Assembly (NCBI GenBank): GCA_964354795.1
Contig: CAYHBB010000016.1
Coordinates: forward strand, 4,084 to 68,083
Origin: an uncultured Planctomycetales bacterium
Lineage (GTDB): Bacteria > Omnitrophota > Gorgyraeia > Gygaellales > Profunditerraquicolaceae
Length of the DNA stretch: 64,000 nucleotides
Direction: 5' to 3'
Position 1 is the first letter of the stretch. The number at the start of each line of letters is the position of its first letter. Made by a program: the position numbers and the translations under genes. The notes below the pieces were generated by a model. The model was not told the DNA's origin and searched no databases. It was given only the letters and a program-made list of their open reading frames with translations. This document shows positions 2,255 to 14,259 of the stretch, piece by piece.

Positions 2255-2431
2255 TTAGATATCTGTCCAAGCGATACATGGTGAACAGCCACCGTGTACT
2301 TCCTGACCTTCCACGCCTCCACGAGCCGCCTTCTTCATCATTGGAGCAGCTTTCCTGCGGAATTTTTTGAATTCCGTGGAGATTTTTTTCAGTTCTCTTT
2401 TAAGACACGCTACATCTTTCGCACTTGCCAT
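2255..2431 (-). CDS. 58-aa precursor-like peptide (third candidate RiPP precursor, no NHLP domain)
   Basis: Manually translated: MASAKDVACLKRELKKISTEFKKFRRKAAPMMKKAARGGVEGQEVHGGCSPCIAWTDI. Strong SD (AGGAGGGAGG) 6 nt upstream. Shares a VEGQ junction and an RKELKKAA-like segment with the two NHLP precursors. Below the 60-aa track threshold. Confidence 0.5.
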   Translation of the reverse strand: MASAKDVACLKRELKKISTEFKKFRRKAAPMMKKAARGGVEGQEVHGGCSPCIAWTDI

Positions 2432-2479
2432 TTTTCCTCCCTCCTTTTTTAATTTTTGTTTACCTGCTTGTTAATTTAA

Positions 2480-2911
2480 TTATCCGCGCAGCGAGCAAGC
2501 GTTGGGACAGGTCCAAGGAAATCTCCATGGCTCCCACCATTCTTGCCCTTCCACGCCCAGTGTTTCAGCTTTCCAGGCCAAGGCAGCCTTTTTAAGCTCT
2601 TTCCTATCCCTGACCGCAAAGATTGACAGCATGCTTTTAGGTACCTTATAGAATATACCGCCCTTATCCATTGCCAGGATTGAAGGCTCTGCCTTGGCTG
2701 TGCCTTTGGGCCTTTGGGGAATAGCTATGTGCCAGGTCTTTGGGGTTTCTTCGATGACAATAATCTTGGCTCCGGGACTGAATTTAACCTTAAGCTCTTT
2801 TTCAATGGTAGCCTTGGGGTTTTTGATCAGACGCCTGCGAAAGGCCTTGTCTTTGTTCGCCTTCGCAACAAGATGCGATTCAGCAGCAAAACGCGAGGTG
2901 TTCCTTGCCAT
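2480..2911 (-). CDS. NHLP (nitrile hydratase-like leader) family RiPP precursor peptide B
   Basis: From internal ATG (MARNTSRF...) with AAGGAGG SD. Leader ...AKANKDKAFRRRLIKNPKATIEKELKVKFSPGAKIIVIEETPKTWHIAIPQRP matches the NHLP pattern. C-terminus ...LGVEGQEWWEPWRFPWTCPNACSLRG. Confidence 0.8.
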   Translation of the reverse strand: MARNTSRFAAESHLVAKANKDKAFRRRLIKNPKATIEKELKVKFSPGAKIIVIEETPKTWHIAIPQRPKGTAKAEPSILAMDKGGIFYKVPKSMLSIFAVRDRKELKKAALAWKAETLGVEGQEWWEPWRFPWTCPNACSLRG

Positions 2912-3794
2912 TCTTAGCCTCCTTTGTTTTTCCGTATGAGATAGGTACGCCAAATAGCTGGACAGCCTCAAACTGCATGCCGTAACAACGCCTTTTAAAT
3001 TGGCATTGCAGACATGGCTGGCCTCCTATCCGGTTATAATGACTTCCTACTCCGTCAAACGCCAGTTCCGCCCCTTCTGGAACATGTAATTCCTCCGCTA
3101 CTTTAAAATTCCTGCCTAAAAGGCAAAAAGGGATCAGTTCAGATCTCAAAGGAACGCGCCTAGATTTACCTAAAAGCGAAACTATCACCTTGATCACCTC
3201 TTCGTATTCCGGGATCAGTTCGCTATGTTTTAAAATATCTCCCATCAAAGCAGGATAAGTTATCCTGTGATTTAAGGCATCCGGGAATCGCTCTTGGACC
3301 AATAGGTGTATTGCCGGTATATCGCGCATGTTGGAGTTGACCGCAACCGTGTTAATGATTGTTTTTACTCCTAATTCAAGGGCATTTTCAATCCCCGCTA
3401 AAGCCTCCTCAAAATGCCTTGTTCCTACTATCCTGTTATGGATATCTGCGCAAGAACCATGTAGCGAAAGCATGGCGCTGTGCAAGCCATGCTGCGAAAG
3501 CTCCTTGGCGAATTTTTTGTCGCAAAAACGAGTTGCGTTGGAAAAAAAGCTGATCCTCTTAAATCCCTTCTTTACAGCCGCATCCATGATCTCGAATATT
3601 TGCGGATGCAAAGTAGGTTCTCCCCCGCTTAACACAATAGTATCGCAGTTGCACAGCGACTTTGCTTTATTAAGGTTGCGCCTAATCTCCCGCAGCGGCC
3701 GATGGAAACAATTTCTTCTCCGGCCTATATAACAGAAACTGCACCGCTGATTGCAATGCGTGGTGATATTTAAAAAAACCTGATTATAGCGCAT
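2880..3794 (-). CDS. radical SAM enzyme (rSAM-2), short C-terminal Cys cluster
   Basis: Start placed at MRYNQVFLNITTHCNQRCSFCYIG (CxxxCxxC near N-terminus). ORF could also begin at 3848 or 3863, overlapping precursor A. GGEPTL present; C-terminal CLQCQFKRRC. Overlaps the start of precursor B by about 30 nt. Confidence 0.75.
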   Translation of the reverse strand: MRYNQVFLNITTHCNQRCSFCYIGRRRNCFHRPLREIRRNLNKAKSLCNCDTIVLSGGEPTLHPQIFEIMDAAVKKGFKRISFFSNATRFCDKKFAKELSQHGLHSAMLSLHGSCADIHNRIVGTRHFEEALAGIENALELGVKTIINTVAVNSNMRDIPAIHLLVQERFPDALNHRITYPALMGDILKHSELIPEYEEVIKVIVSLLGKSRRVPLRSELIPFCLLGRNFKVAEELHVPEGAELAFDGVGSHYNRIGGQPCLQCQFKRRCYGMQFEAVQLFGVPISYGKTKEAKNGKEHLAFCC

Positions 3795-3802
3795 AATACC
3801 TT

Positions 3803-4234
3803 TTATCCGCGAATCCCGCAAGTGGGATAAGCCCAAGGACGATTCCATGGAGATTCCCACCATCCTTGCCCTTCCACATCAGGTGTTTCAGCTTTCCAGG
3901 CCCTAGCAGCGCTTTTAAGTTCTTTCCTGCCCCTGACTGCAAAGATTGACAGCATGCCTTGGGGAACCTTATAGAAAATACCTCCTTTATCCTTTACCAG
4001 GATTGAAGGCTCTGCCTTGGCTGTGCCTTTGGGCCTTTGGGGAATAGCTATGTGCCAGGTCTTTGGGGTTTCTTCGATGACAATAATCTTGGCTCCGGGA
4101 CTGAATTTGACCTTAAGCTCTTTTTCAATGGTAGCCTTGGGGTTTTTGATCAGACGCCTGCGAAAAGCCTTGTCTTTGTTCGCCTTTACGACAAGCTGCG
4201 ATTCAGCAGCAAAACGCGAGATGTTCTTTGGCAT
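3803..4234 (-). CDS. NHLP family RiPP precursor peptide A (paralogue of B)
   Basis: From internal ATG (MPKNISRF...) with AAGGAGA SD. Near-identical NHLP leader. C-terminus ...PDVEGQGWWESPWNRPWAYPTCGIRG. Confidence 0.8.
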   Translation of the reverse strand: MPKNISRFAAESQLVVKANKDKAFRRRLIKNPKATIEKELKVKFSPGAKIIVIEETPKTWHIAIPQRPKGTAKAEPSILVKDKGGIFYKVPQGMLSIFAVRGRKELKSAARAWKAETPDVEGQGWWESPWNRPWAYPTCGIRG

Positions 4235-4253
4235 TTTTAGTCTCCTTTCTAAA

Positions 4254-5642
4254 TTAATTGTCACTATACTCAAGCATTAACCTTTTCTCTATGTTATATT
4301 TAAATGTCGGGCATGGCGCGTCGCATTCAAGCCAGCGCCTTGGACATGCACCGCCGCATAATGGCAAGACTCTGCAGGTCCCGCAAGGAACTTCTCCCTG
4401 CTCTATGCGATCATTAAATCCGGATAAAAGAACCCGATTCCCCGGATTTTTGCCGCCGGATAATGACCCTATAGAAAAAATATTCCTGCCTGTTCCATTT
4501 TTAGAACTTGACCCTGCTGGCTTTTCATACATCTGAGAGATTACGTCCGCGCAGTTAAACAGATTGCCAAAAGCATCCACTACCTCTGATGACGCATCTA
4601 TCGCAAAGCAAGCCTTCTTCAGGCGATGCGGGATAAGGTTTATGTTTTGTAATCCGAGATGCTTCATCTGTTCGAGCCATTTAATTTCCCGCGAAGCGAT
4701 CTCCTCTGTTTTGCCAAAAATTCTGTCAGTTAAGCTGCCCCGATCATGCACAGGTATTATAGAAAAACCGTTTAGCCGTTTAAAAACGGCCTTATCCGCC
4801 AGTTCCCGCATCAAGGCGGAAACTCCTTCATAATTGCGATGGTCAACATTACACCGTACCTGGATCTTCATTTTAGATTTTTCATTACGCGCAATCGCGA
4901 TCACATTTTTAAGGATTTTGCCAAATGTCGGCATCCCATTCTTTCCGCATCTTCTCTTATCGTGATACAATTTCGAGCCATCAAGCGTCACTTCGGCAAG
5001 AGTAATGCCGCATTCTCTCGACAGTTCTGCGGCAATTTTGGGGGTAAAAAGCAGGCCATTGGTCATAATATCAGAGATATAATCACACTCAAATTCTCTG
5101 GCCAAGGACATAAACTTCGGGCTCATTTTCCGGATAACATCCAAAGCCAATAAAGGCTCCGCCCCGGTCCAACAGACTTTTAGTTCCCGGTATGGATGCC
5201 TTTCTAATTTGTTTCGCACCCGCTTTAAAAAAAGTTTCTGATTAGCGCTGCTTATTTTTTTTTTCTTGTGCGCCTGGCCGCAGTAGGAACAATCAAACTG
5301 GCAATCTGCCGAAGGCAACACCCCAAAAGCAAGCCTATGGCTATTTACAATGACCTGATGATTCTCCTTCAAGACAGATGCCAATTCATCTTCATCTAAG
5401 CTAACTATAATCTTGGATGCTTTTAACGCCTCCATTAAGCCGTGGGATAACGAATCAAAATCCCCGGTATAGATATGCTCCCACTGCTTGGCAGTTACAA
5501 TTTTAACTGCATCGGTTCTCGTTGCAAAAATAATGCGTTTCTCTTGTCTTTCCAAAGGGCTGAAAAATTTATCCGTTACTATGAGATAGCGCGAGAGTTT
5601 ATAATTGCCTATATCGCGATTTACTCTTAACGCAGTAATCAT
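4254..5642 (-). CDS. radical SAM / SPASM-domain peptide-modifying enzyme (rSAM-1)
   Basis: 462 aa. CQFDCSYCGQ (CxxxCxxC), C-terminal CGTCRVLPLCGGACPRRWLECDAPC SPASM-like clusters. About 110-aa N-terminal domain before the cluster. Confidence 0.8.
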   Translation of the reverse strand: MITALRVNRDIGNYKLSRYLIVTDKFFSPLERQEKRIIFATRTDAVKIVTAKQWEHIYTGDFDSLSHGLMEALKASKIIVSLDEDELASVLKENHQVIVNSHRLAFGVLPSADCQFDCSYCGQAHKKKKISSANQKLFLKRVRNKLERHPYRELKVCWTGAEPLLALDVIRKMSPKFMSLAREFECDYISDIMTNGLLFTPKIAAELSRECGITLAEVTLDGSKLYHDKRRCGKNGMPTFGKILKNVIAIARNEKSKMKIQVRCNVDHRNYEGVSALMRELADKAVFKRLNGFSIIPVHDRGSLTDRIFGKTEEIASREIKWLEQMKHLGLQNINLIPHRLKKACFAIDASSEVVDAFGNLFNCADVISQMYEKPAGSSSKNGTGRNIFSIGSLSGGKNPGNRVLLSGFNDRIEQGEVPCGTCRVLPLCGGACPRRWLECDAPCPTFKYNIEKRLMLEYSDN

Positions 5643-6433
5643 TCTATGTTTACATGCCTTTTTAAAATGGAAAATTTATCAAGCACCGCTTTTACCTGGC
5701 AGCTTCGGATATCAGGAAAAACACTGAGCAAAAGAGCTGCTATTCCGGTTATGTGCGGCGTGGCAAAACTAGTTCCTGAGCTGCGATGATATTCCCCATT
5801 CAGATACACCAGCTCCAGATCCTGGCCCCTTGCGCCGTATTGAATCCTATTTTTTAAATAACGCGTTACTTTATATTTATCTTCGTAATCTTCGCAATCC
5901 ACGCTTATAACAGAGGAAAACATCGCCGGATATCCTAAGGGCCCGAAGTTTCGTTTTGAGACAACCAAAATAGTATCCTGAACATAGGCTTGTTCGCATA
6001 AATCAAAAAGCGCCGGAACGAATTTTTCGTTTATGGTAGCCAAGCTCATATTGATGAGCTTAAATTTTTTATCCAGCGCCCAACGCAACCCTGCTATTAA
6101 GGCCTCGCCTGAGCCTGTATTATTTTCTCCGAGGACTTTTACGCTTGTTATTTCTACATCAGGAGCTAAGTCTAAGATTATTCCCGCAACGCCGCTGCCG
6201 TGGCCGAATGAGTCAGAACTTTTTTTGCCCGGGATTCCCTGGCATCTGATTTTGCCATTATGGTCATGGACGACGCAGGCTCGTTTTACTTTTCCGCGCA
6301 GAGCCGGATGTGATGCGTCAACACCGCTGTCAATAATAGCTACCTTTACTCCCTTACCGGTACTATTGCTAACTAGCCATTTTATATTTAAGCGAGGATT
6401 TATAAGTGGCAGGATGTGAGCCTTGGTTTTCAC
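5639..6433 (-). CDS. subtilisin-like serine peptidase (S8), no signal peptide or prodomain; candidate leader peptidase
   Basis: Catalytic motifs VAIIDSGVD (Asp), FGHGSGVAGII (His), GTSFATPHITG (Ser). 264 aa, begins directly at catalytic domain. 4-nt overlap with rSAM-1. Confidence 0.8.
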   Translation of the reverse strand: MKTKAHILPLINPRLNIKWLVSNSTGKGVKVAIIDSGVDASHPALRGKVKRACVVHDHNGKIRCQGIPGKKSSDSFGHGSGVAGIILDLAPDVEITSVKVLGENNTGSGEALIAGLRWALDKKFKLINMSLATINEKFVPALFDLCEQAYVQDTILVVSKRNFGPLGYPAMFSSVISVDCEDYEDKYKVTRYLKNRIQYGARGQDLELVYLNGEYHRSSGTSFATPHITGIAALLLSVFPDIRSCQVKAVLDKFSILKRHVNIE

Positions 6434-6436
6434 TGC

Positions 6437-7174
6437 TTATTTTCCTTCTCGCAAGCTGCCCTTCCAACTCAGCTCGCCGGCAATCCGGCCGATAATCTCA
6501 ACTAAATCCGCGCAAAGCGGCATTAAATCTTTCCGCTTTTGAGAAAGGTTCCCAAGATTGCGCGCAATATCCACAGCTGCTTTGTCAGAACGCTTTAAAA
6601 ACTTAACCCCGCCCTTTTTTCCCAAAAGCATATTGCGCACAGCTTCCTCGCGCCTGAGCTGGCGTATAACCATTCCGCAGAGCTGGGAAAAACGGCTGTA
6701 AAGCTTTACATCTTGGCTTGAAAAAACTCGGCCCTTTTTAAAGGTAACTGCTGTAATTACTCCAATAACTTCACCTTCAACAAGCATCGGAGCGGCTAAC
6801 ACAGCTTCGGGTTCATTTGGATGCTTCTTTTCATAATCTGCCTGTTTTACGCCGTGATAAGTAGGAGCACCCGTCTGAGGCTCTCCTGTTGACGCGGCTA
6901 ATCCGGTAATTCCTTTGTGCATTGAAAAACGCTGCCCCTTAAGGCGCTGCTGGACTTCATGCTCGCCGATAGTAATCATAAATTCCAGTTCCTGCCTTTT
7001 CTTATCCAACAAGAGCAACGAACCTTCGTCGGCGCTCATCATCCCTACTCCTATTTCCATAATAAGGCGAAGAAGCTCATCGTCTTTTAATTCTTCCCCG
7101 AAGGATAGATACGCGGCAAGCGCCACAAGATTCTTAAATGGAAGCTCTTTTCTTGATGCTTTTTTCTTAACCAT
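6437..7174 (-). CDS. GAF domain protein
   Basis: 245 aa; GAF-like pattern (GSLLLLD...GITGLAASTGEP...VIGVITAV). No DNA-binding or kinase domain. First gene of the co-directional cluster. Confidence 0.5.
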   Translation of the reverse strand: MVKKKASRKELPFKNLVALAAYLSFGEELKDDELLRLIMEIGVGMMSADEGSLLLLDKKRQELEFMITIGEHEVQQRLKGQRFSMHKGITGLAASTGEPQTGAPTYHGVKQADYEKKHPNEPEAVLAAPMLVEGEVIGVITAVTFKKGRVFSSQDVKLYSRFSQLCGMVIRQLRREEAVRNMLLGKKGGVKFLKRSDKAAVDIARNLGNLSQKRKDLMPLCADLVEIIGRIAGELSWKGSLREGK

Positions 7175-7468: not shown

Positions 7469-8878
7469 TTATTTTTTGGAAGGAACCAGGAACACTACCT
7501 CTCCCTCTCCTTCGAGACGACCGTACTGCGGCGTCTGCAGATTGTCCGAGGCACGCGAGACCTGAGGCATGAGGTAGGCGCCAAGCTCCGAGGCGGTCAC
7601 CACCCCATCGTTGTCCCGGTCAGCCTCCCCGTCAATCCCTTGCAAAAAATATTGCGTGAAGAGACCGTGCCCATCAAGTTCGACGACCTGCTCCGCTTTA
7701 CCACCCGCGGTGATCATCTGCACCGAACGTAACGACGTGATCTTCTGGATGTAGCCGTTGATCCCCGGATCCACGCCTAAGGCCCGGGTGAACCCTAGAC
7801 CAGAATAACAGGCGTCCATCGCATACAGGATGTGCTTGGCCGGAATCCGCTCGGATATATCACGCACCTGCTGCATGGAGATGGCCGTCGTAAAATAGTT
7901 GGTGATATCACCGTCGACCGGAATAATGTAACCCTTCTCTTTCCCGTCGGGCATGGATTCGGTCTGTCCGTGGCCAGCAAAGAAAATTAGCACACGATCA
8001 TCCGGCCCGACGTTTTTGGGAAGTTCGGACCCGAGCACGGTCAGAATGCGTTCCCGAGTCGCTTCTTTATCCAGTATCTCGATGACCTCATCGAAACCGA
8101 TCTCTCTAAGCTTCTTCGCAACGACCTGCGCATCGTTTGCCGCATACTCCAGCGGCGGCCAGAGATCGTATTTGTTGATCCCGATCACGACCGCCCAGCT
8201 TTTGCGGTAGAAACTCCCGGCTTTAAGCTCGGCGGGTTCCGCGGACGACTCCGCTGTTCTAACGACAGATGCCGGTAAGCTACGCCGCTGGGCAAAGGAA
8301 GTCATCAGTTCAGACTTGTCCAGGCCGCTCTCGAACTGCTTGAACGCTGGCCCCAGCGCCGCATCGAAGCCATAGCTAAAGGAAACATACGCCGGTGTCG
8401 AGAGCCCGCTGCCTTTAATGGTGTCAATAATGTGCCCCTGCCGATTCGTAAAGGTGCTGGTGATGTCCACCGTGGTGTTCTGGTCGACTTTTTGGCAGAT
8501 CGTACAGCGATAATCAAATGCAAGGATCAGATCCACGTCGGATTTGACCGCATCGTCCATGCTGGCAAACTTCGTCACGCGTTTGAAACGCGACTGAATG
8601 ATTTTGTTCAATCCTTGAGTCACCTTTTTCGGATCGCACTTTTCGAGGAACGGAACAAAGACTCTGTGCCCGTGACGCATATGTTTTCTCATGTAGTCGA
8701 AAGCTTGTTCCGTGTTCTCGGTGTACACCAGTCCAAGATGGATACTCGCTAATGGACCGCCCTGCCCGTAGACCGCTCCTGGTACGACAACTTGTTCCTT
8801 ATAGCTTGGCGTTGCGAGGCATCCAAAGAGAGAAAAACAGGCAATAGTAATAAGCCAATAAAATTTTTGTAAGTTCAT
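7469..8878 (-). CDS. caspase-like (peptidase C14) lipoprotein
   Basis: Start moved to MNLQKFYWLITIACFSLFGC (lipobox, GGAGA SD); the longer track ORF overlaps the upstream gene. C-terminal half has the caspase His/Cys dyad: FFAGHGQTE and DACYSG. Confidence 0.65.
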   Translation of the reverse strand: MNLQKFYWLITIACFSLFGCLATPSYKEQVVVPGAVYGQGGPLASIHLGLVYTENTEQAFDYMRKHMRHGHRVFVPFLEKCDPKKVTQGLNKIIQSRFKRVTKFASMDDAVKSDVDLILAFDYRCTICQKVDQNTTVDITSTFTNRQGHIIDTIKGSGLSTPAYVSFSYGFDAALGPAFKQFESGLDKSELMTSFAQRRSLPASVVRTAESSAEPAELKAGSFYRKSWAVVIGINKYDLWPPLEYAANDAQVVAKKLREIGFDEVIEILDKEATRERILTVLGSELPKNVGPDDRVLIFFAGHGQTESMPDGKEKGYIIPVDGDITNYFTTAISMQQVRDISERIPAKHILYAMDACYSGLGFTRALGVDPGINGYIQKITSLRSVQMITAGGKAEQVVELDGHGLFTQYFLQGIDGEADRDNDGVVTASELGAYLMPQVSRASDNLQTPQYGRLEGEGEVVFLVPSKK

Positions 8879-8915
8879 GGGTTTTGTCTCCTCATTGCCT
8901 TGTGATACGTTTGTA

Positions 8916-9860
8916 TTAGTAATGGAGGTTTGAATATCTGATTTGAAGCAGCTTTTCCCGGCGTTGCCGTATTGCCTCGCTTTGGCTATGTGTTGCACAG
9001 ATAATTCCATACTGCGTAAGCGCGGCATCATAGAGGCGGTAATTCTCAAGAAACAGAATAAATGCCAGGCGCGTAGCTGTCTTTTGAGCATTACGCGACA
9101 GTTCCTCCTGGAAACGCGCTATGTCCGCGCTTAAATACGCGACATCCCTTTCTTTTAACAAATAAAAATAACTGCGTTTCTCAGCGATGACTCTTCTATT
9201 TTTTAAACCTTTGACGTCCCATTTGTAACGGGCGCCAAAGGTAAGGGGGGTTTCAGATTGAGGGTAGGGCAGCTCTTCCCCGGTAGTCGTACTCTGCCAG
9301 AGAAATTTAGCGCCCGGCTCAAGATAAAGGGTCACCGTATAGCTGTCCGCGCCATTCACCGGCTTCCAGCTAAAGGTCGGCCGTTGCTCAAGTATAGCGG
9401 TATTAGAAAGCCCGGTTACTTCTATTTTGCTGTTGAGCGTAACCTCATCTGAACTACTCAGCCCCCTCAGTGTAAAACTACCCTTCTGCGGAGAATCTAT
9501 CTGCGGTAATACCACTTTATTGTTTGCAATAAGCACTCCAGAAGGAATGTGCTTGCTTTGGGCAATTCCCACAACAACTTTCATGCTTCCCGGCCATTGT
9601 TCTTGCTGGCCGGATTCCAAATAATTAATCGTAAAGGAGGCATCCTTTGCGAGCTCTACCATATCACCCGAATACAACAGTTCTCCTAAACCAACTTCTC
9701 TCTTTTTCCCATTCCGCACCAAAGAAACATTCCCTCCTGTATCCATAATAATCGCGCTATAGGAACTATTTTCTGCGACCGCGATCTCGGGCAGAGTGAA
9801 AACGAGAAACGTAAGTGCGGCAACAAGAGAATAAAGGTATGTGTGGCTATTTTTCATCAT
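8916..9860 (-). CDS. secreted protein with FecR-like N-terminal domain and Fn3/Ig-like middle region
   Basis: Signal peptide MMKNSHTYLYSLVAALTFLVFTLPEIAVA. GNVSLVRNGKKREVGLGELLYSGDMVELAKDASFTI resembles the FecR fold pattern. Weak assignment. Confidence 0.4.
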   Translation of the reverse strand: MMKNSHTYLYSLVAALTFLVFTLPEIAVAENSSYSAIIMDTGGNVSLVRNGKKREVGLGELLYSGDMVELAKDASFTINYLESGQQEQWPGSMKVVVGIAQSKHIPSGVLIANNKVVLPQIDSPQKGSFTLRGLSSSDEVTLNSKIEVTGLSNTAILEQRPTFSWKPVNGADSYTVTLYLEPGAKFLWQSTTTGEELPYPQSETPLTFGARYKWDVKGLKNRRVIAEKRSYFYLLKERDVAYLSADIARFQEELSRNAQKTATRLAFILFLENYRLYDAALTQYGIICATHSQSEAIRQRREKLLQIRYSNLHY

Positions 9861-9983
9861 TAAGAGTTATTAAGAAACTTCATTAGTTTATTTTCTGCGT
9901 TATAGAATCGTTGCGTTTGCACCTTAAGCATTTTAAGGGCAACCTCAGGAAACTTTGAGCAGTTTCATGGTTATGTAACTATG

Positions 9984-10955
9984 TTATACGTGTATCGCGC
10001 GAGGAATTGGAATACTGTGGCAAGGGGTCTTTGGCGATATCTCCTCGACCATCTTTTCCAAAAGCCCCACCTTCCCTTCGAAATCAAGCCAGGCCCATTC
10101 GCCATTGGCATTCACCTCTAAAAAGAAGTAGTCCCCATTTGCATACAGCATATCCAGCCGGCCGAAATGAAGCCCTAAGTCGTGCATAAAATGAACTATG
10201 GAATGCTCAAGGGATCTAGGAAGGTGATGGATACACCAGGCGTCCGTAGCGGTATCGGGGCCCATTTCGCGCCAGTCCACGGTTTTGTCTAAAAAAGGTT
10301 CTCGGTTGAGTTCAAACCCATACATCTTACCCCTGACAAAGACAATGGTAATATCGGATGAAGCATTTACATAGTCCTGTATCAGCCATGGAGTCGAGGG
10401 GTCTAATTGATCCTCTTGAACCCTCGTGGTATAGAGAACCGCGTTTTCATTCACTCGTTTTGAGGTGAGACTTTTAACGATGGAAGACTTTCCTTTTTCA
10501 AAAAATTCCGCCGAGCCACTTACGAATTTGTATGGCGGAATTTTAAAATACTTGCTCGCGACTTTGAGCTGAACAAGCTTTCCTATCCTGGCATCTGCCA
10601 TGGGCTCTACGAGAACAAGCTTGCCTTTCGACCAGGCCAGATTGACCATATCGCGCAGCGCATACGAAACTTCTTCTTGCATATAGACAATCTCAGTGCG
10701 GATCTTGCGGTTAGGATACAGCTGCTGTGTCATAAACGGCCTGCGCCAATAGAACTTAGCGATATCGCTGCTGGTAATACAGCGACCGGCCGGGTTTTCG
10801 ATGGAGAATTGAGAATGGTCAATTTTTATTTTGTATTCTTGCCATAAATCAAGATTAAAGCGAAAAACATTCTCGCTTCCAATTTTAGAGATCAATAGAT
10901 CAACCGTGAGATCTAAAGAATTGGTGTAGATAAAAGTGACGGAATTCATCCCCAC
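9984..10955 (-). CDS. ATP-grasp family ligase (peptide-maturase-like)
   Basis: 323 aa. C-terminal GRLDMLYANGDYFFLEVNANGEWAWL matches the ATP-grasp Mg-binding E-x-N region. Size and layout fit RiPP-type ATP-grasp enzymes. Recalled homology only. Confidence 0.55.
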   Translation of the reverse strand: MGMNSVTFIYTNSLDLTVDLLISKIGSENVFRFNLDLWQEYKIKIDHSQFSIENPAGRCITSSDIAKFYWRRPFMTQQLYPNRKIRTEIVYMQEEVSYALRDMVNLAWSKGKLVLVEPMADARIGKLVQLKVASKYFKIPPYKFVSGSAEFFEKGKSSIVKSLTSKRVNENAVLYTTRVQEDQLDPSTPWLIQDYVNASSDITIVFVRGKMYGFELNREPFLDKTVDWREMGPDTATDAWCIHHLPRSLEHSIVHFMHDLGLHFGRLDMLYANGDYFFLEVNANGEWAWLDFEGKVGLLEKMVEEISPKTPCHSIPIPRAIHV

Positions 10956-10983
10956 TGCTTTCGGTGCTTAGTTTCCGCTATTA

Positions 10984-11163
10984 TCACGCATCAGCCTCTT
11001 GTGAGCCTTCACCGTCAAACAAGGTGCTGCTCTTAAGGGCGTGCTTAAGCCCGGGGCACGTAAGATCCAGCTCGCGGCGCTGAGTGTGATGATCATAGGG
11101 CGCCTTCTCTACTTCTTTAATGACACTGCCTTTGCAGCGAGCCAACTCTAAAATTGTCTTCAT
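10984..11163 (-). CDS. 59-aa peptide, candidate ATP-grasp substrate/precursor
   Basis: ATG at 11163 with AAAGGAGGTGA SD 8 nt upstream (the track's GTG start is 3 codons earlier). MKTILELARCKGSVIKEVEKAPYDHHTQRRELDLTCPGLKHALKSSTLFDGEGSQEADA. Tail is rich in S/T/K and D/E. Confidence 0.4.
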   Translation of the reverse strand: MKTILELARCKGSVIKEVEKAPYDHHTQRRELDLTCPGLKHALKSSTLFDGEGSQEADA

Positions 11164-11249
11164 TGCGTTCACCTCCTTTATTTGAAATTGTTATTTACCA
11201 CACACGTCTTCCCTTTTTAAAACAATGGCAAGAAAGATTTGTTACGCCG

Positions 11250-12689
11250 TCACACACTGATGCTTTTAAGCGCGAACTCGCGAATCCTGTTCTCTAAATT
11301 CCCGCGTATGAACCAATAACAGTGATCGTCGTCTTTTAACTTTCCCGACTGAAAACGTCTTTTATGCGCGCAGCCGCCTGCACATTGAGGCAGTACGGGA
11401 CATTTTTTGCACATATCATACTGGAACCAATCATAATTCAGCCAGGGAATTAAATTGCTGAATATAATAGGGTACTTAAGAAAGATTGAGCCATACGCTC
11501 GTTCAACCAACCCCAGATCTTCGACGCATTTATACAGTTCACCTTCGGGGCCGATAGTTGCAGAAGAGTAGCAGGTCGCTGCGCAGCCAGCGTTGCTGGC
11601 TTTTGTCAACGGAACGAAGGTCATAAAAGCTAAACCTAAGGCTTTGGCTTTAGCGGTTTCGCGTCTTAAAATTTCCAAATATGGCTGTGGAGGGATATGC
11701 TGGATTACACAGCCGTCCCTGGCGCACTCCGGCTCAAAAACATTGGCTATATTGATTGATTGTATCCGTTTGTGCAAGTTTCTTCGGATAAGACCGTCAT
11801 AGAGTTGGTCAAACTCCTTTTCATTATCCTGAGTAAGATTAATACGGACGTGTATTCTTAACTTTTCTGCCGCGATACTTAAATTTTCCAGCACTTTATC
11901 CAGAGTATCCCGCCCTTGTTTGTCTTGTTTTGTTGATTTCGGAATATCAACTGTTACCTGAACCAAAGAAACCCTGTATTTATGGAGTAAATTAACAACA
12001 TCCCGGTTTAATAAAGTTCCGTTGGTGGACGACAAGCCGTGGTATTCAATTCCGGCCTTATCAAATGCGGGAATAATCCGGGAGCTGATGCGCTCTATCG
12101 TTCCTACGGCAAGTAACGGTTCTCCTCCGAACCAAACAATCTGCACTCTCTTTTTCTCTCGGGATATTCTGGCGATGTAAGAAACAACTGCATTTTCAGT
12201 TTCCCGGGACATCATTTTGCGATTACGGATAATCTGGGCTTTTCCTTCAAAGCAATAAGGACATTGTAAGTTGCAAAGCAGTGTGGGTACGACATTCAAA
12301 CTTAATATATCATTCCTGTAGCGGGAAAATAAAAGCTGCTGTTTGACAATTTCAAGTTCGTTAATATTTTTGGAGACAAAGAAACCTTTTGAATAAAGAA
12401 GGTGCATGGGCTGCGGAATAGATTTTCCACGCATTTGATATTCAGAACCACGAGATAGGTATTTACGCCAGGCATCGCGATTCAGAATAGCGAGAGTTCC
12501 GGTGAGTGTATTATATACTGCCTTCTTATTGTCAGGTAAATCAACCGATACATTGAACTGCGAGGGGATCCAAGTATCCGAAAACAACTCGTATGCTCTT
12601 TTTACAGATGCCGTTGCGGAAAACAAATTTACTTCTGACTTAGCTTCGGGTGACACTTCAAAAACAGCAGTGGGGTTTTCGTTAGGCAT
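11250..12689 (-). CDS. radical SAM / SPASM-domain enzyme (rSAM-5)
   Basis: CNLQCPYCFEG (CxxxCxxC), GGEPLL, C-terminal CKKCPVLPQCAGGCAHKR SPASM motif. Track start is TTG; ATG start at 12689 (MPNENPTAVF) chosen. Confidence 0.8.
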   Translation of the reverse strand: MPNENPTAVFEVSPEAKSEVNLFSATASVKRAYELFSDTWIPSQFNVSVDLPDNKKAVYNTLTGTLAILNRDAWRKYLSRGSEYQMRGKSIPQPMHLLYSKGFFVSKNINELEIVKQQLLFSRYRNDILSLNVVPTLLCNLQCPYCFEGKAQIIRNRKMMSRETENAVVSYIARISREKKRVQIVWFGGEPLLAVGTIERISSRIIPAFDKAGIEYHGLSSTNGTLLNRDVVNLLHKYRVSLVQVTVDIPKSTKQDKQGRDTLDKVLENLSIAAEKLRIHVRINLTQDNEKEFDQLYDGLIRRNLHKRIQSINIANVFEPECARDGCVIQHIPPQPYLEILRRETAKAKALGLAFMTFVPLTKASNAGCAATCYSSATIGPEGELYKCVEDLGLVERAYGSIFLKYPIIFSNLIPWLNYDWFQYDMCKKCPVLPQCAGGCAHKRRFQSGKLKDDDHCYWFIRGNLENRIREFALKSISV

Positions 12690-12863
12690 ATCTATTAAGC
12701 CTTTGGTTTTGCAAATAGCAGCAGGCAATTTAAAAAAAATCAATTTGCATTGCCGGGGCAGAATTTATCCAATCATCCACGTCAGGATTACTATCTACCC
12801 AGCGGCAGCATGCAATCTTAAGATTTCAGTTCTCTTAGGTATAATACAGCAGCGGCAGTTGTA

Positions 12864-13064
12864 TTATAAGCAAGATGCAAAATAACTTCTCTTGTCCATG
12901 CAGCAGGTGGTCAAATCCACGACATAATCGCAACTTTGACCCGCTACTTCTGCAGATTTTTTCTTGTTGGCTTTTTCAAACTTCGCCTTTGAAATCTTAC
13001 ATTTTTTTAAAACACTGGTTGGTATTGCGTAATATTTTTTCCCTGATTTAATTAGTATCGACAT
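12864..13064 (-). CDS. 66-aa Lys-rich/Cys-rich peptide, candidate rSAM-SPASM substrate
   Basis: SD AGGAGGGG 6 nt upstream. MSILIKSGKKYYAIPTSVLKKCKISKAKFEKANKKKSAEVAGQSCDYVVDLTTCCMDKRSYFASCL. Four Cys in last 24 residues. Immediately upstream of rSAM-5. Confidence 0.45.
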   Translation of the reverse strand: MSILIKSGKKYYAIPTSVLKKCKISKAKFEKANKKKSAEVAGQSCDYVVDLTTCCMDKRSYFASCL

Positions 13065-13314
13065 GGTTTTCCCCTCCTAGCTTTTTGTACCCACACAAAG
13101 GTTGCTTTTAACACCCATTTGGGTCATTCTTTACTACTGAACTACTGAATCTTATCTTGCTATTTCTCTATTTTTTCATCACCTCCTTTTTTTTATAACT
13201 TTCTTTAGTTTTAAAGAAAATTTATCCTTATCCATTGTAGGGTATTATAGCATAAAAAAACGCCTTGATAGCAAAATAAAATCGGCGGAACTTCAGCTGA
13301 CACAACAGCCAAAC

Positions 13315-14259
13315 TCAAGGTTTTCCCTCCAGATAAGCAATAATTGCGGGTGCCGCTTTGCCGTATTCTTCACGCAGCATCTCACAAAACATTTTCCAAT
13401 GACGCGCGGTATCGTCTGTAGCTAATGTACGAGCAATTTCATAAAAGTTATTTCCTGCTGTCGTGGCATGTGGAACCACTATGCTCCCCTGAAATGAATT
13501 CTTATCATCCTTGTTAAGTTCGCAATGAAGCACTTCTTTATCTCCCACTACGTAATCAAGGGCGTTTGTGTAGGTGGGATTGTTTTTACGTATTTTATAT
13601 TCCTCATCCGTATGAAACCGTATCTCAGGATGCTGCGTATGCAACTCCTTGAGTAACTCCTCCGCCGAACCAGCCCTGGGGCGAAACATCTCATTATCTA
13701 ACAGCCAACTGAAATAATAATAGCCGGAACGAATTCCGGGAGGAATTCCTGCCTTCCAGTCCATAGGCACAAGGGGTTTATTGTCGCGTAAAAGCCACTC
13801 TACATAATTGGAATGCGAGTAAAAATCCTGGAGAGTATGAAATGCCTCTCCCAGCATGTACAGCACCCTATTTCTGGATTTCGGATTACCAACTACATTC
13901 GCGGCAGCTATTTTTGCAATGTTCAACTGATGCGTAATATATTCATAACTATCACGAATGCGATTATCATCAAAATGGTGATGGGGGGAATTGGTGAATT
14001 TAGAGCTGAAAGGCCAATCCTGGCTATTGCAGCCTTCAATAATCTTACCTATGCTTTGTTCTTGGAATCCCAGAGGAGTGAGGGCATCTTTCAAGATGCT
14101 TTCGTGAATGGGCTCGCCGAAACCAAAGCGGGTCTTAAAGGCATGGCTATTGTGCGGCACACAAAAAATAAATAGCGCTGCTATCCATATCCACAAACAA
14201 CCATGTTTTGACACCTTATTTACAGACCTTATGTTTATTTCGCTAAACACTATAGACAC
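13315..14259 (-). CDS. secreted Het-C-like / zinc-phospholipase-C-fold protein
   Basis: Signal/TM MSIVF...LWIWIAALFIFCVPHNSHA. Motif HTLQDFYSHSNYVEW resembles the Het-C domain signature. Memory-based. Confidence 0.4.
   Translation of the reverse strand: MSIVFSEINIRSVNKVSKHGCLWIWIAALFIFCVPHNSHAFKTRFGFGEPIHESILKDALTPLGFQEQSIGKIIEGCNSQDWPFSSKFTNSPHHHFDDNRIRDSYEYITHQLNIAKIAAANVVGNPKSRNRVLYMLGEAFHTLQDFYSHSNYVEWLLRDNKPLVPMDWKAGIPPGIRSGYYYFSWLLDNEMFRPRAGSAEELLKELHTQHPEIRFHTDEEYKIRKNNPTYTNALDYVVGDKEVLHCELNKDDKNSFQGSIVVPHATTAGNNFYEIARTLATDDTARHWKMFCEMLREEYGKAAPAIIAYLEGKP

Follow-up and report, generated by a model that had tools for sequence, protein, structure and literature searches.

A conserved 58-codon gene and a V-x-G-Q junction common to three precursor families at an Omnitrophota peptide locus

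The locus and the closest described systems

Omnitrophota, a phylum with few cultivated members, is the source of the 64,000-nucleotide stretch of DNA analysed here (contig CAYHBB010000016.1; the whole stretch is called the window below), in which a small gene on the minus strand, gene C, lies in a cassette that resembles those for peptides that are made by the ribosome and modified after translation (RiPPs). Two described systems come closest to it. The first is the ElxP/ElxA pair in the leader processing of epilancin 15X, a class I lanthipeptide; the recognition motif published for S8 peptidases of the ElxP type is (D/E-5)(L/V-4)xxQ-1 (PMC10885120). The second is the QhpC/D/E/F system, which matures the gamma subunit of quinohemoprotein amine dehydrogenase and consists of a small Cys/Trp polypeptide with a leader of ~28 residues, a leader-binding radical SAM/SPASM cross-linker, the cytoplasmic subtilisin-like peptidase QhpE, which takes off the leader, and an efflux ABC transporter (PMC7876137).

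The cassette described here has the order GAF-domain protein, S8 peptidase, C, two radical SAM/SPASM enzymes (rSAM3 and rSAM4), ABC exporter and cyclic nucleotide monophosphate (cNMP)-binding protein. In the window, it also holds two precursors with an NHLP leader domain (A and B) and two further radical SAM enzymes (rSAM1 and rSAM2), and another precursor-like open reading frame (ORF), D, lies in the neighbouring cluster. Two findings are central: C is a real gene under purifying selection, and three precursor families, namely those of C, of the NHLP-type precursors and of D, keep a junction motif of the form V-x-G-Q where leader and core meet. Related loci and peptides are referred to by labels of the type L001 and P0017.

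With ElxP/ElxA, this locus has in common a junction directly before the core and an S8 peptidase without signal peptide or propeptide; it differs in the absence of LanB/C, in its radical SAM/SPASM maturases and in an extra invariant Gly at position -2 of the junction. With QhpCDEF, it has the gene logic in common, and among the NCBIfam models the S8 protein matches QhpE best. However, this match reaches 111.3 bits against a cut-off of 165, and rSAM3 and rSAM4 are nearer to PqqE and mycofactocin-type enzymes than to QhpD, the model of which (TIGR03906) is not among the best 25 matches listed for either enzyme. Furthermore, QhpC is an enzyme subunit of ~80 aa, whereas C has 58 aa with a 15-aa core. 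No QhpA or QhpB dehydrogenase subunits are encoded in the 10-kb flanks of L001, L004, L010 and L015, and the QhpG flavoprotein is absent from the flanks read.

Three other classes of systems were compared. Precursors with an NHLP leader (TIGR03793, PF02979-like; proteusin or NHLP-class bacteriocin) are similar in that A and B carry this domain beside radical SAM enzymes, but C does not have the domain, and A and B differ by a post-NHLP extension of ~45 residues, the lack of Gly-Gly, the VEGQ junction and an exporter without a C39 domain. Double-glycine (C39/PCAT) leaders differ from C: the junction here is G-Q rather than GG, and the exporter has no C39 domain. The PqqA/PqqE and MftA/MftC pairs resemble the C system in having a short precursor with the highest conservation at its extreme C-terminus, and the best matches of rSAM3 and rSAM4 include PqqE and the mycofactocin maturase. 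Both enzymes, however, score far below the cut-offs of these families (PqqE, 143 and 139 bits with a cut-off of 381; mycofactocin enzyme, 98 and 118 bits with a cut-off of 265), no separate PqqD gene is present, the cassette contains two radical SAM/SPASM enzymes together with an S8 peptidase and an exporter, and the core C.PCIAWT.I is unrelated. By these comparisons, C and its cassette appear to fall outside the NHLP, QhpCDEF, PqqA/E, mycofactocin and double-glycine systems. The logic of precursor, radical SAM/SPASM enzymes, S8 leader peptidase and ABC exporter is familiar, with ElxP/ElxA as the closest analogue for the motif and QhpCDEF for the gene set. The cassette itself appears to be previously undescribed, as the peptide matches no Pfam or NCBIfam model and the radical SAM and S8 proteins score below every family cut-off. 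Literature searches yielded nothing relevant on radical SAM RiPPs of Omnitrophica or on NHLP/rSAM/Trp cross-links.

Gene C and the V-x-G-Q junction

The original prediction had described a minus-strand ORF with a strong Shine-Dalgarno sequence as an unannotated third precursor, and the ORF, the quoted 58-aa translation and the ribosome-binding sequence were all found as described (Table 1). The ORF is unannotated in the window, but an identical protein is annotated elsewhere, in a Candidatus Omnitrophota metagenome-assembled genome (MCX5704564.1, 'hypothetical protein NTZ92_00605'). The spacing between AGGAGGGAGG and the ATG is 4 nt, or 8 nt if counted from the first AGGAGG. L001 and L010 retain an AGGAGG as well, and there it lies across the end of the S8 gene. 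The ORF could have proved to be unconserved in related contigs; instead, protein searches identified a small family of homologues with 54-62 residues and 37-100% identity, and dN/dS (the nonsynonymous to synonymous rate ratio by the Nei-Gojobori method) between the window copy and its relatives was 0.04-0.17 where dS was unsaturated. Directly after the stop codon, there is a stem-loop with a minimum free energy of -32.4 kcal/mol (z -6.6), in which 93.7% of the cells are paired over 5 lineages and 4 pairs show compensatory changes, compared with 30-52% pairing in slid-partner controls. It contains no T-run, and the terminator scan after C called no canonical intrinsic terminator; the hairpin is probably mRNA-stabilising or attenuating. 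The reality of gene C is thus supported by the identity of its homologues, the low dN/dS values, the kept Shine-Dalgarno sequence and the covarying 3' hairpin. As in RiPP precursors in general, it is a small translated gene under purifying selection in a syntenic position adjacent to its predicted maturase genes.

No Pfam or NCBIfam match of C was detected at E<=0.01, and none in Pfam even at E<=10, whereas A and B score 50.7 and 51.4 bits with the NHLP model (cut-off 50.9), in line with the earlier description of C as a precursor without an NHLP domain. The C family is rare in the scanned collections: it occurs in a single GTDB representative genome and in a few contigs from freshwater sediment, with Lake Pavin and a JGI sample series as lake-sediment sources. 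When the degenerate DNA pattern C.PC[IV].WT.I-stop was scanned across genome and metagenome contigs, the true matches were in the same Omnitrophota genome and in five metagenome contigs, and one of them was a new variant (L027). Three additional matches (L021, L023 and L029) were chance matches without a peptide.

The alignment of 15 family sequences plus the L027 variant (16 distinct sequences) shows a conserved N-terminal segment (V7, L10, K11, L14, F21 and R25), a middle that differs in length between members and the C-terminal motif C-x-P-C-[IV]-x-W-T-x-I, which is invariant; the residues invariant throughout the family are L10, K11, L14, F21, C49, C52, W55, T56 and I58. An AlphaFold model built with a 14-sequence alignment predicted a helix at residues 4-35, with a predicted local distance difference test (pLDDT) score of ~90 for residues 1-30, and disorder at residues 36-58. 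The helical N-terminus, variable linker and Cys/Trp C-terminus give C the bipartite form of RiPP precursors, and the modelled helix followed by a disordered segment would correspond to the usual leader/core layout. In some loci, C is tandem-duplicated, such that the cassette holds one or two peptide copies. The contigs with one motif-bearing homologue (P0015) also hold two tandem 60-aa genes.

VEGQ is common to C, A and B, ahead of a short tail of 15 or 20 aa that contains Trp and Cys, as had been proposed (residues 40-43 in C and 120-123 in A and B). Among 200,000 shuffles of C, VEGQ arose in 0.036% (P 3.6e-4), and any 6-mer shared with A in 0.08%; a chance origin of the motif is unlikely. 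A search of relatives revealed that the junction is kept in the homologues of both families. In 14 NHLP-type precursors (12 aligned sequences, a 151-aa copy in L013 and a fragment in L018), VEGQ is invariant and sits at the switch from conserved sequence to a hypervariable tail that ends in PW..P....RG. In the C family, 12 of the 16 peptides have [VI]-[EQS]-G-Q in the corresponding position, and none of these 12 departs from G and Q. In D and its three homologues, [DE]-V-A-G-Q is invariant and precedes a variable, Cys-rich tail.

Pooling of the three families gave 30 motif-bearing sequences, in which position -1 is always Gln, position -2 always Gly and position -4 always Val or Ile; position -3 is variable (Glu, Gln, Ser or Ala), and position -5 is Asp or Glu in 24 of the 30. 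The consensus is (D/E)-(V/I)-x-G-Q, and over the 30 sequences the junction agrees with the ElxP-type pattern at every specified position. In subtilisins, fixed P4 and P1 subsites with a free P3 are expected if the cut follows Gln. A variable P3 between a fixed P4 and P1 is therefore what subtilisin-type binding would produce if cleavage occurred after this residue.

The cassette and its accessory module

All of the motif-bearing C homologues with enough readable flank sit in the GAF-S8-C-rSAM-rSAM-ABC-cNMP cassette, the ABC exporter of which has ~850 aa, and a CHASE2-cyclase gene is often found further downstream. So far, the cassette has been found only in Omnitrophota-type contigs. The S8 protein shows visible catalytic motifs and aligns over the whole mature part of subtilisin BPN' only. 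Neither an N-terminal signal peptide nor a propeptide was recognised in it by inspection, suggesting that it is cytoplasmic, like the cognate S8 peptidases encoded in the clusters of ElxP-type systems. The exporter gene would be left of the window edge; its L001 orthologue (10898-13462, 854 aa) has no C39 match, its ABC_membrane domain begins at residue 21, and NHLM_micro_ABC1 aligned only from model position 145. Because the exporter has no C39 domain and no Gly-Gly site is present, the cassette offers no dedicated protease candidate other than the S8 peptidase. The nucleotide-binding domain of the L001 exporter is split by an insertion of ~200 aa (ABC_tran 354-454 and then 653-823).

The gene immediately after C is always rSAM3, which is predicted to be the maturase of C and has an N-terminal extension of ~145 aa. 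PqqE is its best NCBIfam match, and the closest solved structures are those of PqqE, SkfB and SuiB. The extension has no PqqD match in Pfam; a single-sequence AlphaFold model showed a beta3-alpha3 topology at a pLDDT of 51, and Foldseek returned nothing significant, with TbiB1, CteB and SuiB, which contain a RiPP recognition element (RRE), ranked high at E>=0.06. The window contains only part of rSAM4, but its full-length L001 orthologue (9417-10865) has both Radical_SAM and SPASM domains. Judged from these matches, rSAM3 and rSAM4 appear closest to PqqE, SkfB, SuiB and mycofactocin-type enzymes, although far below all of the family cut-offs.

Four C homologues (P0017, P0018, P0022 and P0025), in three loci, do not have the junction motif and carry R-T-E-G-C or a similar sequence in place of VxGQ. 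Upstream of these genes, there is a divergently transcribed caspase-like gene, not GAF-S8. The link between the S8 peptidase and the motif is supported by this finding, because the motif-less homologues have no S8 gene directly upstream. The Arg near the junction in all four raises the possibility of a protease swap. This co-variation could not be widened because of the rarity of the C family. The motif-less genes are located at L019 801-977, at L020 344-517 and 787-963 (two tandem copies) and on the European Nucleotide Archive contig of P0025. Downstream of the L019 peptide, 113 readable residues resemble the N-terminus of rSAM3 by eye. In the window, a caspase-like peptidase is encoded at 7469-9091; it is a less likely leader protease of C, as the S8-C cassette of L010 has no caspase gene in its 10-kb upstream flank.

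Four lineages have the cassette without any NHLP gene: L001, L004-9, L010-12 and L015-17. Their flanks show ~95% (L001), ~80% (L004-9) and 80-85% (L010-12) DNA identity to the window, and the fourth, which was compared at the protein level, has an rSAM3 protein 69% identical to that of the window. In these lineages, 5-18 nt separate the S8 stop codon from the start of the C gene, and C is the sole precursor beside the S8 peptidase and the two radical SAM/SPASM enzymes. Homology of the window to the NHLP-less loci is lost at 5669 and picks up again at 2457-2460, which defines the intervening segment as a presence/absence module. L013, L014, L027 and the more distant L018 carry this module too, and the NHLP homologues with visible context are all located at this same site. 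The same downstream genes follow C homologues of 53% (L018) and 55% identity. Because four lineages carry the cassette without NHLP genes, C would be the native precursor of the cassette, and the NHLP genes with their two radical SAM genes an add-on, the opposite of the relationship proposed earlier.

The NHLP-less state is likely to be the older one, and an insertion is favoured, because three lineages have homologous sequence at the NHLP-less junction. The distribution of the module departs from the identity of rSAM3: L001, the closest relative by this measure (94%), does not have the block, whereas it is present in L014 (90%) and in the distant L018 (58%). The history of the module therefore appears to involve recombination, transfer or repeated loss. 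The NHLP precursor genes also differ between loci in number and order. In L013, two are in tandem (9523-9978 and 10001-10432) before rSAM2, and a third begins after it, beyond 11324. The cores are hypervariable, with leader and VEGQ fixed. In the window, rSAM2 in its longest ORF shares 61 nt with NHLP-B at the start and 32 nt with NHLP-A at the end. No SPASM domain was detected in rSAM2 by Pfam, yet it has a C-terminal Cys cluster, CLQCQFKRRCYG.

Upstream of the GAF gene, there is a strong sigma-70-like promoter match, TTGAGA-16-TATAAT (7340-7313). A ybjQ-like gene (PF01906) lies between the caspase-like and GAF genes in L001 (5644-6014) and is largely deleted in the window, at ~7295; it is also found upstream of the GAF gene in L010 and further upstream in L004.

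Table 1. Positions of the genes, junctions and other features in the window
Feature	Position (nt)	Strand	Remarks
Gene for GAF-domain protein	6437-7174	minus	First gene of the cassette; Pfam GAF_2; upstream of the S8 gene in L001, L004, L010, L013 and L015
Gene for S8 subtilisin-like peptidase	5639-6433	minus	264 aa; Pfam Peptidase_S8, 1.2e-30
Accessory module (rSAM1, NHLP-B, rSAM2, NHLP-A)	~2458-5668	minus	Between the S8 gene and C
rSAM1	4254-5642	minus	
NHLP-B precursor	3803-4234	minus	NHLP 51.4 bits (NCBIfam cut-off 50.9)
VEGQ codons of NHLP-B	3866-3877	minus	Residues 120-123
rSAM2	2880-3863	minus	Likely true start Met at 3794, downstream of the B stop
NHLP-A precursor	2480-2911	minus	NHLP 50.7 bits (NCBIfam cut-off 50.9)
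VEGQ codons of NHLP-A	2543-2554	minus	Residues 120-123
Shine-Dalgarno sequence of C	2436-2445	minus	AGGAGGGAGG; read directly from the sequence
Precursor gene C	2255-2431	minus	58 aa; ATG start; stop codon 2255-2257
Predicted leader of C	2303-2431	minus	Residues 1-43
VEGQ codons of C	2303-2314	minus	V40-E41-G42-Q43; predicted S8 cut after Q43
Predicted core of C	2258-2302	minus	Residues 44-58, EVHGGCSPCIAWTDI
Stem-loop	2201-2247	minus	19 bp; directly 3' of the C stop, before rSAM3
rSAM3	705-2177	minus	Radical SAM/SPASM, 490 aa; GTG start; Pfam Radical_SAM and SPASM
rSAM4	1-696	minus	N-terminal 232 aa, cut by the window edge; translation contains CNMNCCYC
Precursor-like ORF D	12864-13064	minus	66 aa; E-V-A-G-Q at residues 39-43; MSILIKSGKKYYAIP...AEVAGQSCDYVVDLTTCCMDKRSYFASCL
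VAGQ codons of D	12936-12947	minus	
62-aa ORF	10984-11172	minus	Conserved in L001 and L013; no VxGQ

Proposed pathway, other readings and further precursor-like genes

We propose that C is the native precursor of a RiPP cassette and is processed by leader docking, radical SAM modification, S8 cleavage after Gln43 and export, a reading that we regard as probable. The N-terminal amphipathic helix of C (residues ~4-35) would serve as the leader and dock on the N-terminal extension of rSAM3 and/or rSAM4. The two enzymes would then modify the core C-x-P-C-I-A-W-T-x-I, with cross-links of Cys and/or Trp as the most likely products. The cytoplasmic S8 peptidase would recognise (D/E/G)-(V/I)-x-G-Q and cut after Gln43, thereby freeing a 15-residue product (modified EVHGGCSPCIAWTDI). 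This cut is suggested by the conservation of the motif, the ElxP precedent and the co-variation with the S8 gene. The ABC exporter, which has no peptidase domain, would export the product. The NHLP precursors, with rSAM1 and rSAM2, and probably also D may reuse the same S8 peptidase through the common junction; because A, B and D carry the same junction, several precursor families could share one protease.

Several points weigh against this proposal. Cleavage, modification and export are all predicted from sequence. Position -5 is Gly, neither Asp nor Glu, in the C and A of the window itself. The S8 protein scores below the QhpE cut-off, and its likeness to ElxP is judged from the recognition motif. 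The low-confidence model and the non-significant Foldseek result give only a hint of an RRE at the N-terminus of rSAM3. The co-variation compares ~5 motif-bearing lineages with 3 short contigs (1.0-1.6 kb), and the clusters on these contigs could have an S8 gene at another place. The family is small and phylogenetically narrow, and the conservation of VEGQ partly reflects relatedness. Finally, the core of C is unusually conserved for an antimicrobial RiPP, and the product could belong to a different class.

In a more specific but unlikely variant of the proposal, the invariant cross-linked 15-residue peptide is an exported signal, not an antibiotic, and is tied to cyclic-nucleotide signalling, and (D/E)VxGQ is a portable processing tag for plug-in modules. 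The link to cyclic nucleotides would be provided by three proteins with conserved genes around that of the peptide, namely the GAF protein, the cNMP-binding protein and the CHASE2-guanylate/adenylate cyclase. The junction tag would let A and B with rSAM1 and rSAM2, and D with its radical SAM enzyme, use one protease and one exporter, so that the locus would be modular and yield several RiPP products.

Among the alternatives to the proposed cleavage pathway, the one that survives best, although we consider it decidedly improbable, is that V-x-G-Q is functional without being an S8 site, either as a signal for the maturase or exporter or as part of the mature product, with Glu or Gln as a cross-link partner of Cys or Trp, comparable to the Cys-to-Glu thioethers in QhpC. 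QhpD does make Cys-to-Asp/Glu thioethers (PMC7876137), the motif occurs in three families that have different radical SAM partners but one exporter, and S8 cleavage at the motif is a prediction. However, Glu is swapped for Gln, Ser or Ala in some members, whereas Gly and Gln are invariant, which makes Glu unlikely as an essential cross-link acceptor. As the cores are unrelated and the radical SAM enzymes different, a common protease signal would be more economical than a common maturase signal, and the motif agrees with the ElxP-type S8 pattern at every specified position. In addition, the motif-less homologues have no upstream S8 gene yet keep the first downstream gene (L019, by eye).

It is very unlikely that C is instead a conserved small protein other than a precursor, such as a regulator, chaperone, scaffold or immunity factor, with a coincidental VEGQ match. 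The absence of any Pfam or NCBIfam match and a C-terminus more conserved than usual RiPP cores are consistent with this possibility, and a 4-mer common to A and B (any such 4-mer) arises in ~10% of C shuffles. Highly conserved cores are, however, known for PqqA and mycofactocin-type precursors. Moreover, C directly precedes two radical SAM/SPASM enzymes with N-terminal extensions, the predicted structure combines a helical leader with a disordered Cys/Trp C-terminus, and C is duplicated in tandem in some loci, as is often the case for precursors. The motif of the NHLP family, which the D family also carries, occurs in C with the above-mentioned low probability by chance and at the same boundary. 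These findings support the earlier proposal that C is a genuine third precursor with a distinct core of its own, which is conserved, under selection and syntenic.

The part of the original prediction that found no support is the description of C as a leader-truncated paralogue of A and B, which would have lost the NHLP domain and kept the same linker and VEGQ as a recognition module. The three genes are adjacent in one operon, A and C have GVEGQE in common, and BLASTP aligned C with A over 18 residues (E 0.007), but no alignment was obtained with B. Between the two family profiles, hhalign gave a probability of 13% (P 0.002) over 11 columns; when restricted post hoc to the linker, it gave 51% (P 1.5e-4), aligning KELK...AA.A.K....VEGQ with an 11-residue gap. 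The claimed resemblance between the middle of C and the A/B linker therefore stands for the VEGQ junction and is weak beyond it, and C and the NHLP precursors appear to have in common just the junction, perhaps with some residues beside it. The helical leader of C, 35 residues long and conserved, is its own, and its conserved residues (V7, L10, K11, L14, F21 and R25) are unmatched in A and B; the cores (C.PCIAWT.I versus PW..P....RG) are unrelated; the NHLP block is the variable element; and C occurs without NHLP genes in four lineages, at a deeper divergence than that of the sampled NHLP family, all of which makes truncation the least probable of the alternatives. Likewise, the suggestion that the conserved linker and VEGQ form the recognition and cleavage module is retained in part: VEGQ as a cleavage signal at the leader/core boundary is plausible from the match to the ElxP motif and the S8 co-variation, but no support was found for C as a truncated form built on a module that includes the linker.

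Compared with the described systems, the new elements are one ElxP-like junction common to three unrelated precursor families and a module slotted between the protease and the native precursor. If the proposed pathway is correct, one junction motif and one cytoplasmic subtilisin-like protease would be used by three precursor families that are unrelated and have separate radical SAM enzymes, which would represent a natural example of modular 'plug-in' RiPP biosynthesis, and (D/E)VxGQ would provide a compact tag for engineered leader removal. The invariant Cys/Trp core beside two PqqE-like radical SAM/SPASM enzymes points to a cross-link chemistry not yet assigned. For annotation, the sub-threshold ORF C is the central gene of the operon, not a side product.

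The earlier estimate of at least three distinct cores holds, but it is an undercount, since D and possibly a 62-aa ORF add to this number. D is conserved in L001, L004 and L013 and is located upstream of a radical SAM/SPASM gene (11250-12743) paralogous to rSAM1, with 25% identity (E 9e-20). It aligns end to end with residues 78-126 of A and B (IL..xKGGIFYKVP..L......DVEGQ), which is the post-NHLP part (P 6.5e-4, probability 27%). Because D aligns with this part and its radical SAM enzyme is paralogous to rSAM1, the comparison suggests that A and B are NHLP domains fused to a D-like precursor, and the description of a stand-alone post-NHLP linker would fit D better than C. The 62-aa ORF, which was viewed together with 9984-10955 and 8916-9860, is located between a TIGR04463-like radical SAM/SPASM gene and an MvdC-like ATP-grasp gene; its product may be another precursor or else a helper protein. 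L004 has other genes in place of this segment, namely a different 55-aa ORF, a gene for a PqqD protein and another radical SAM gene.

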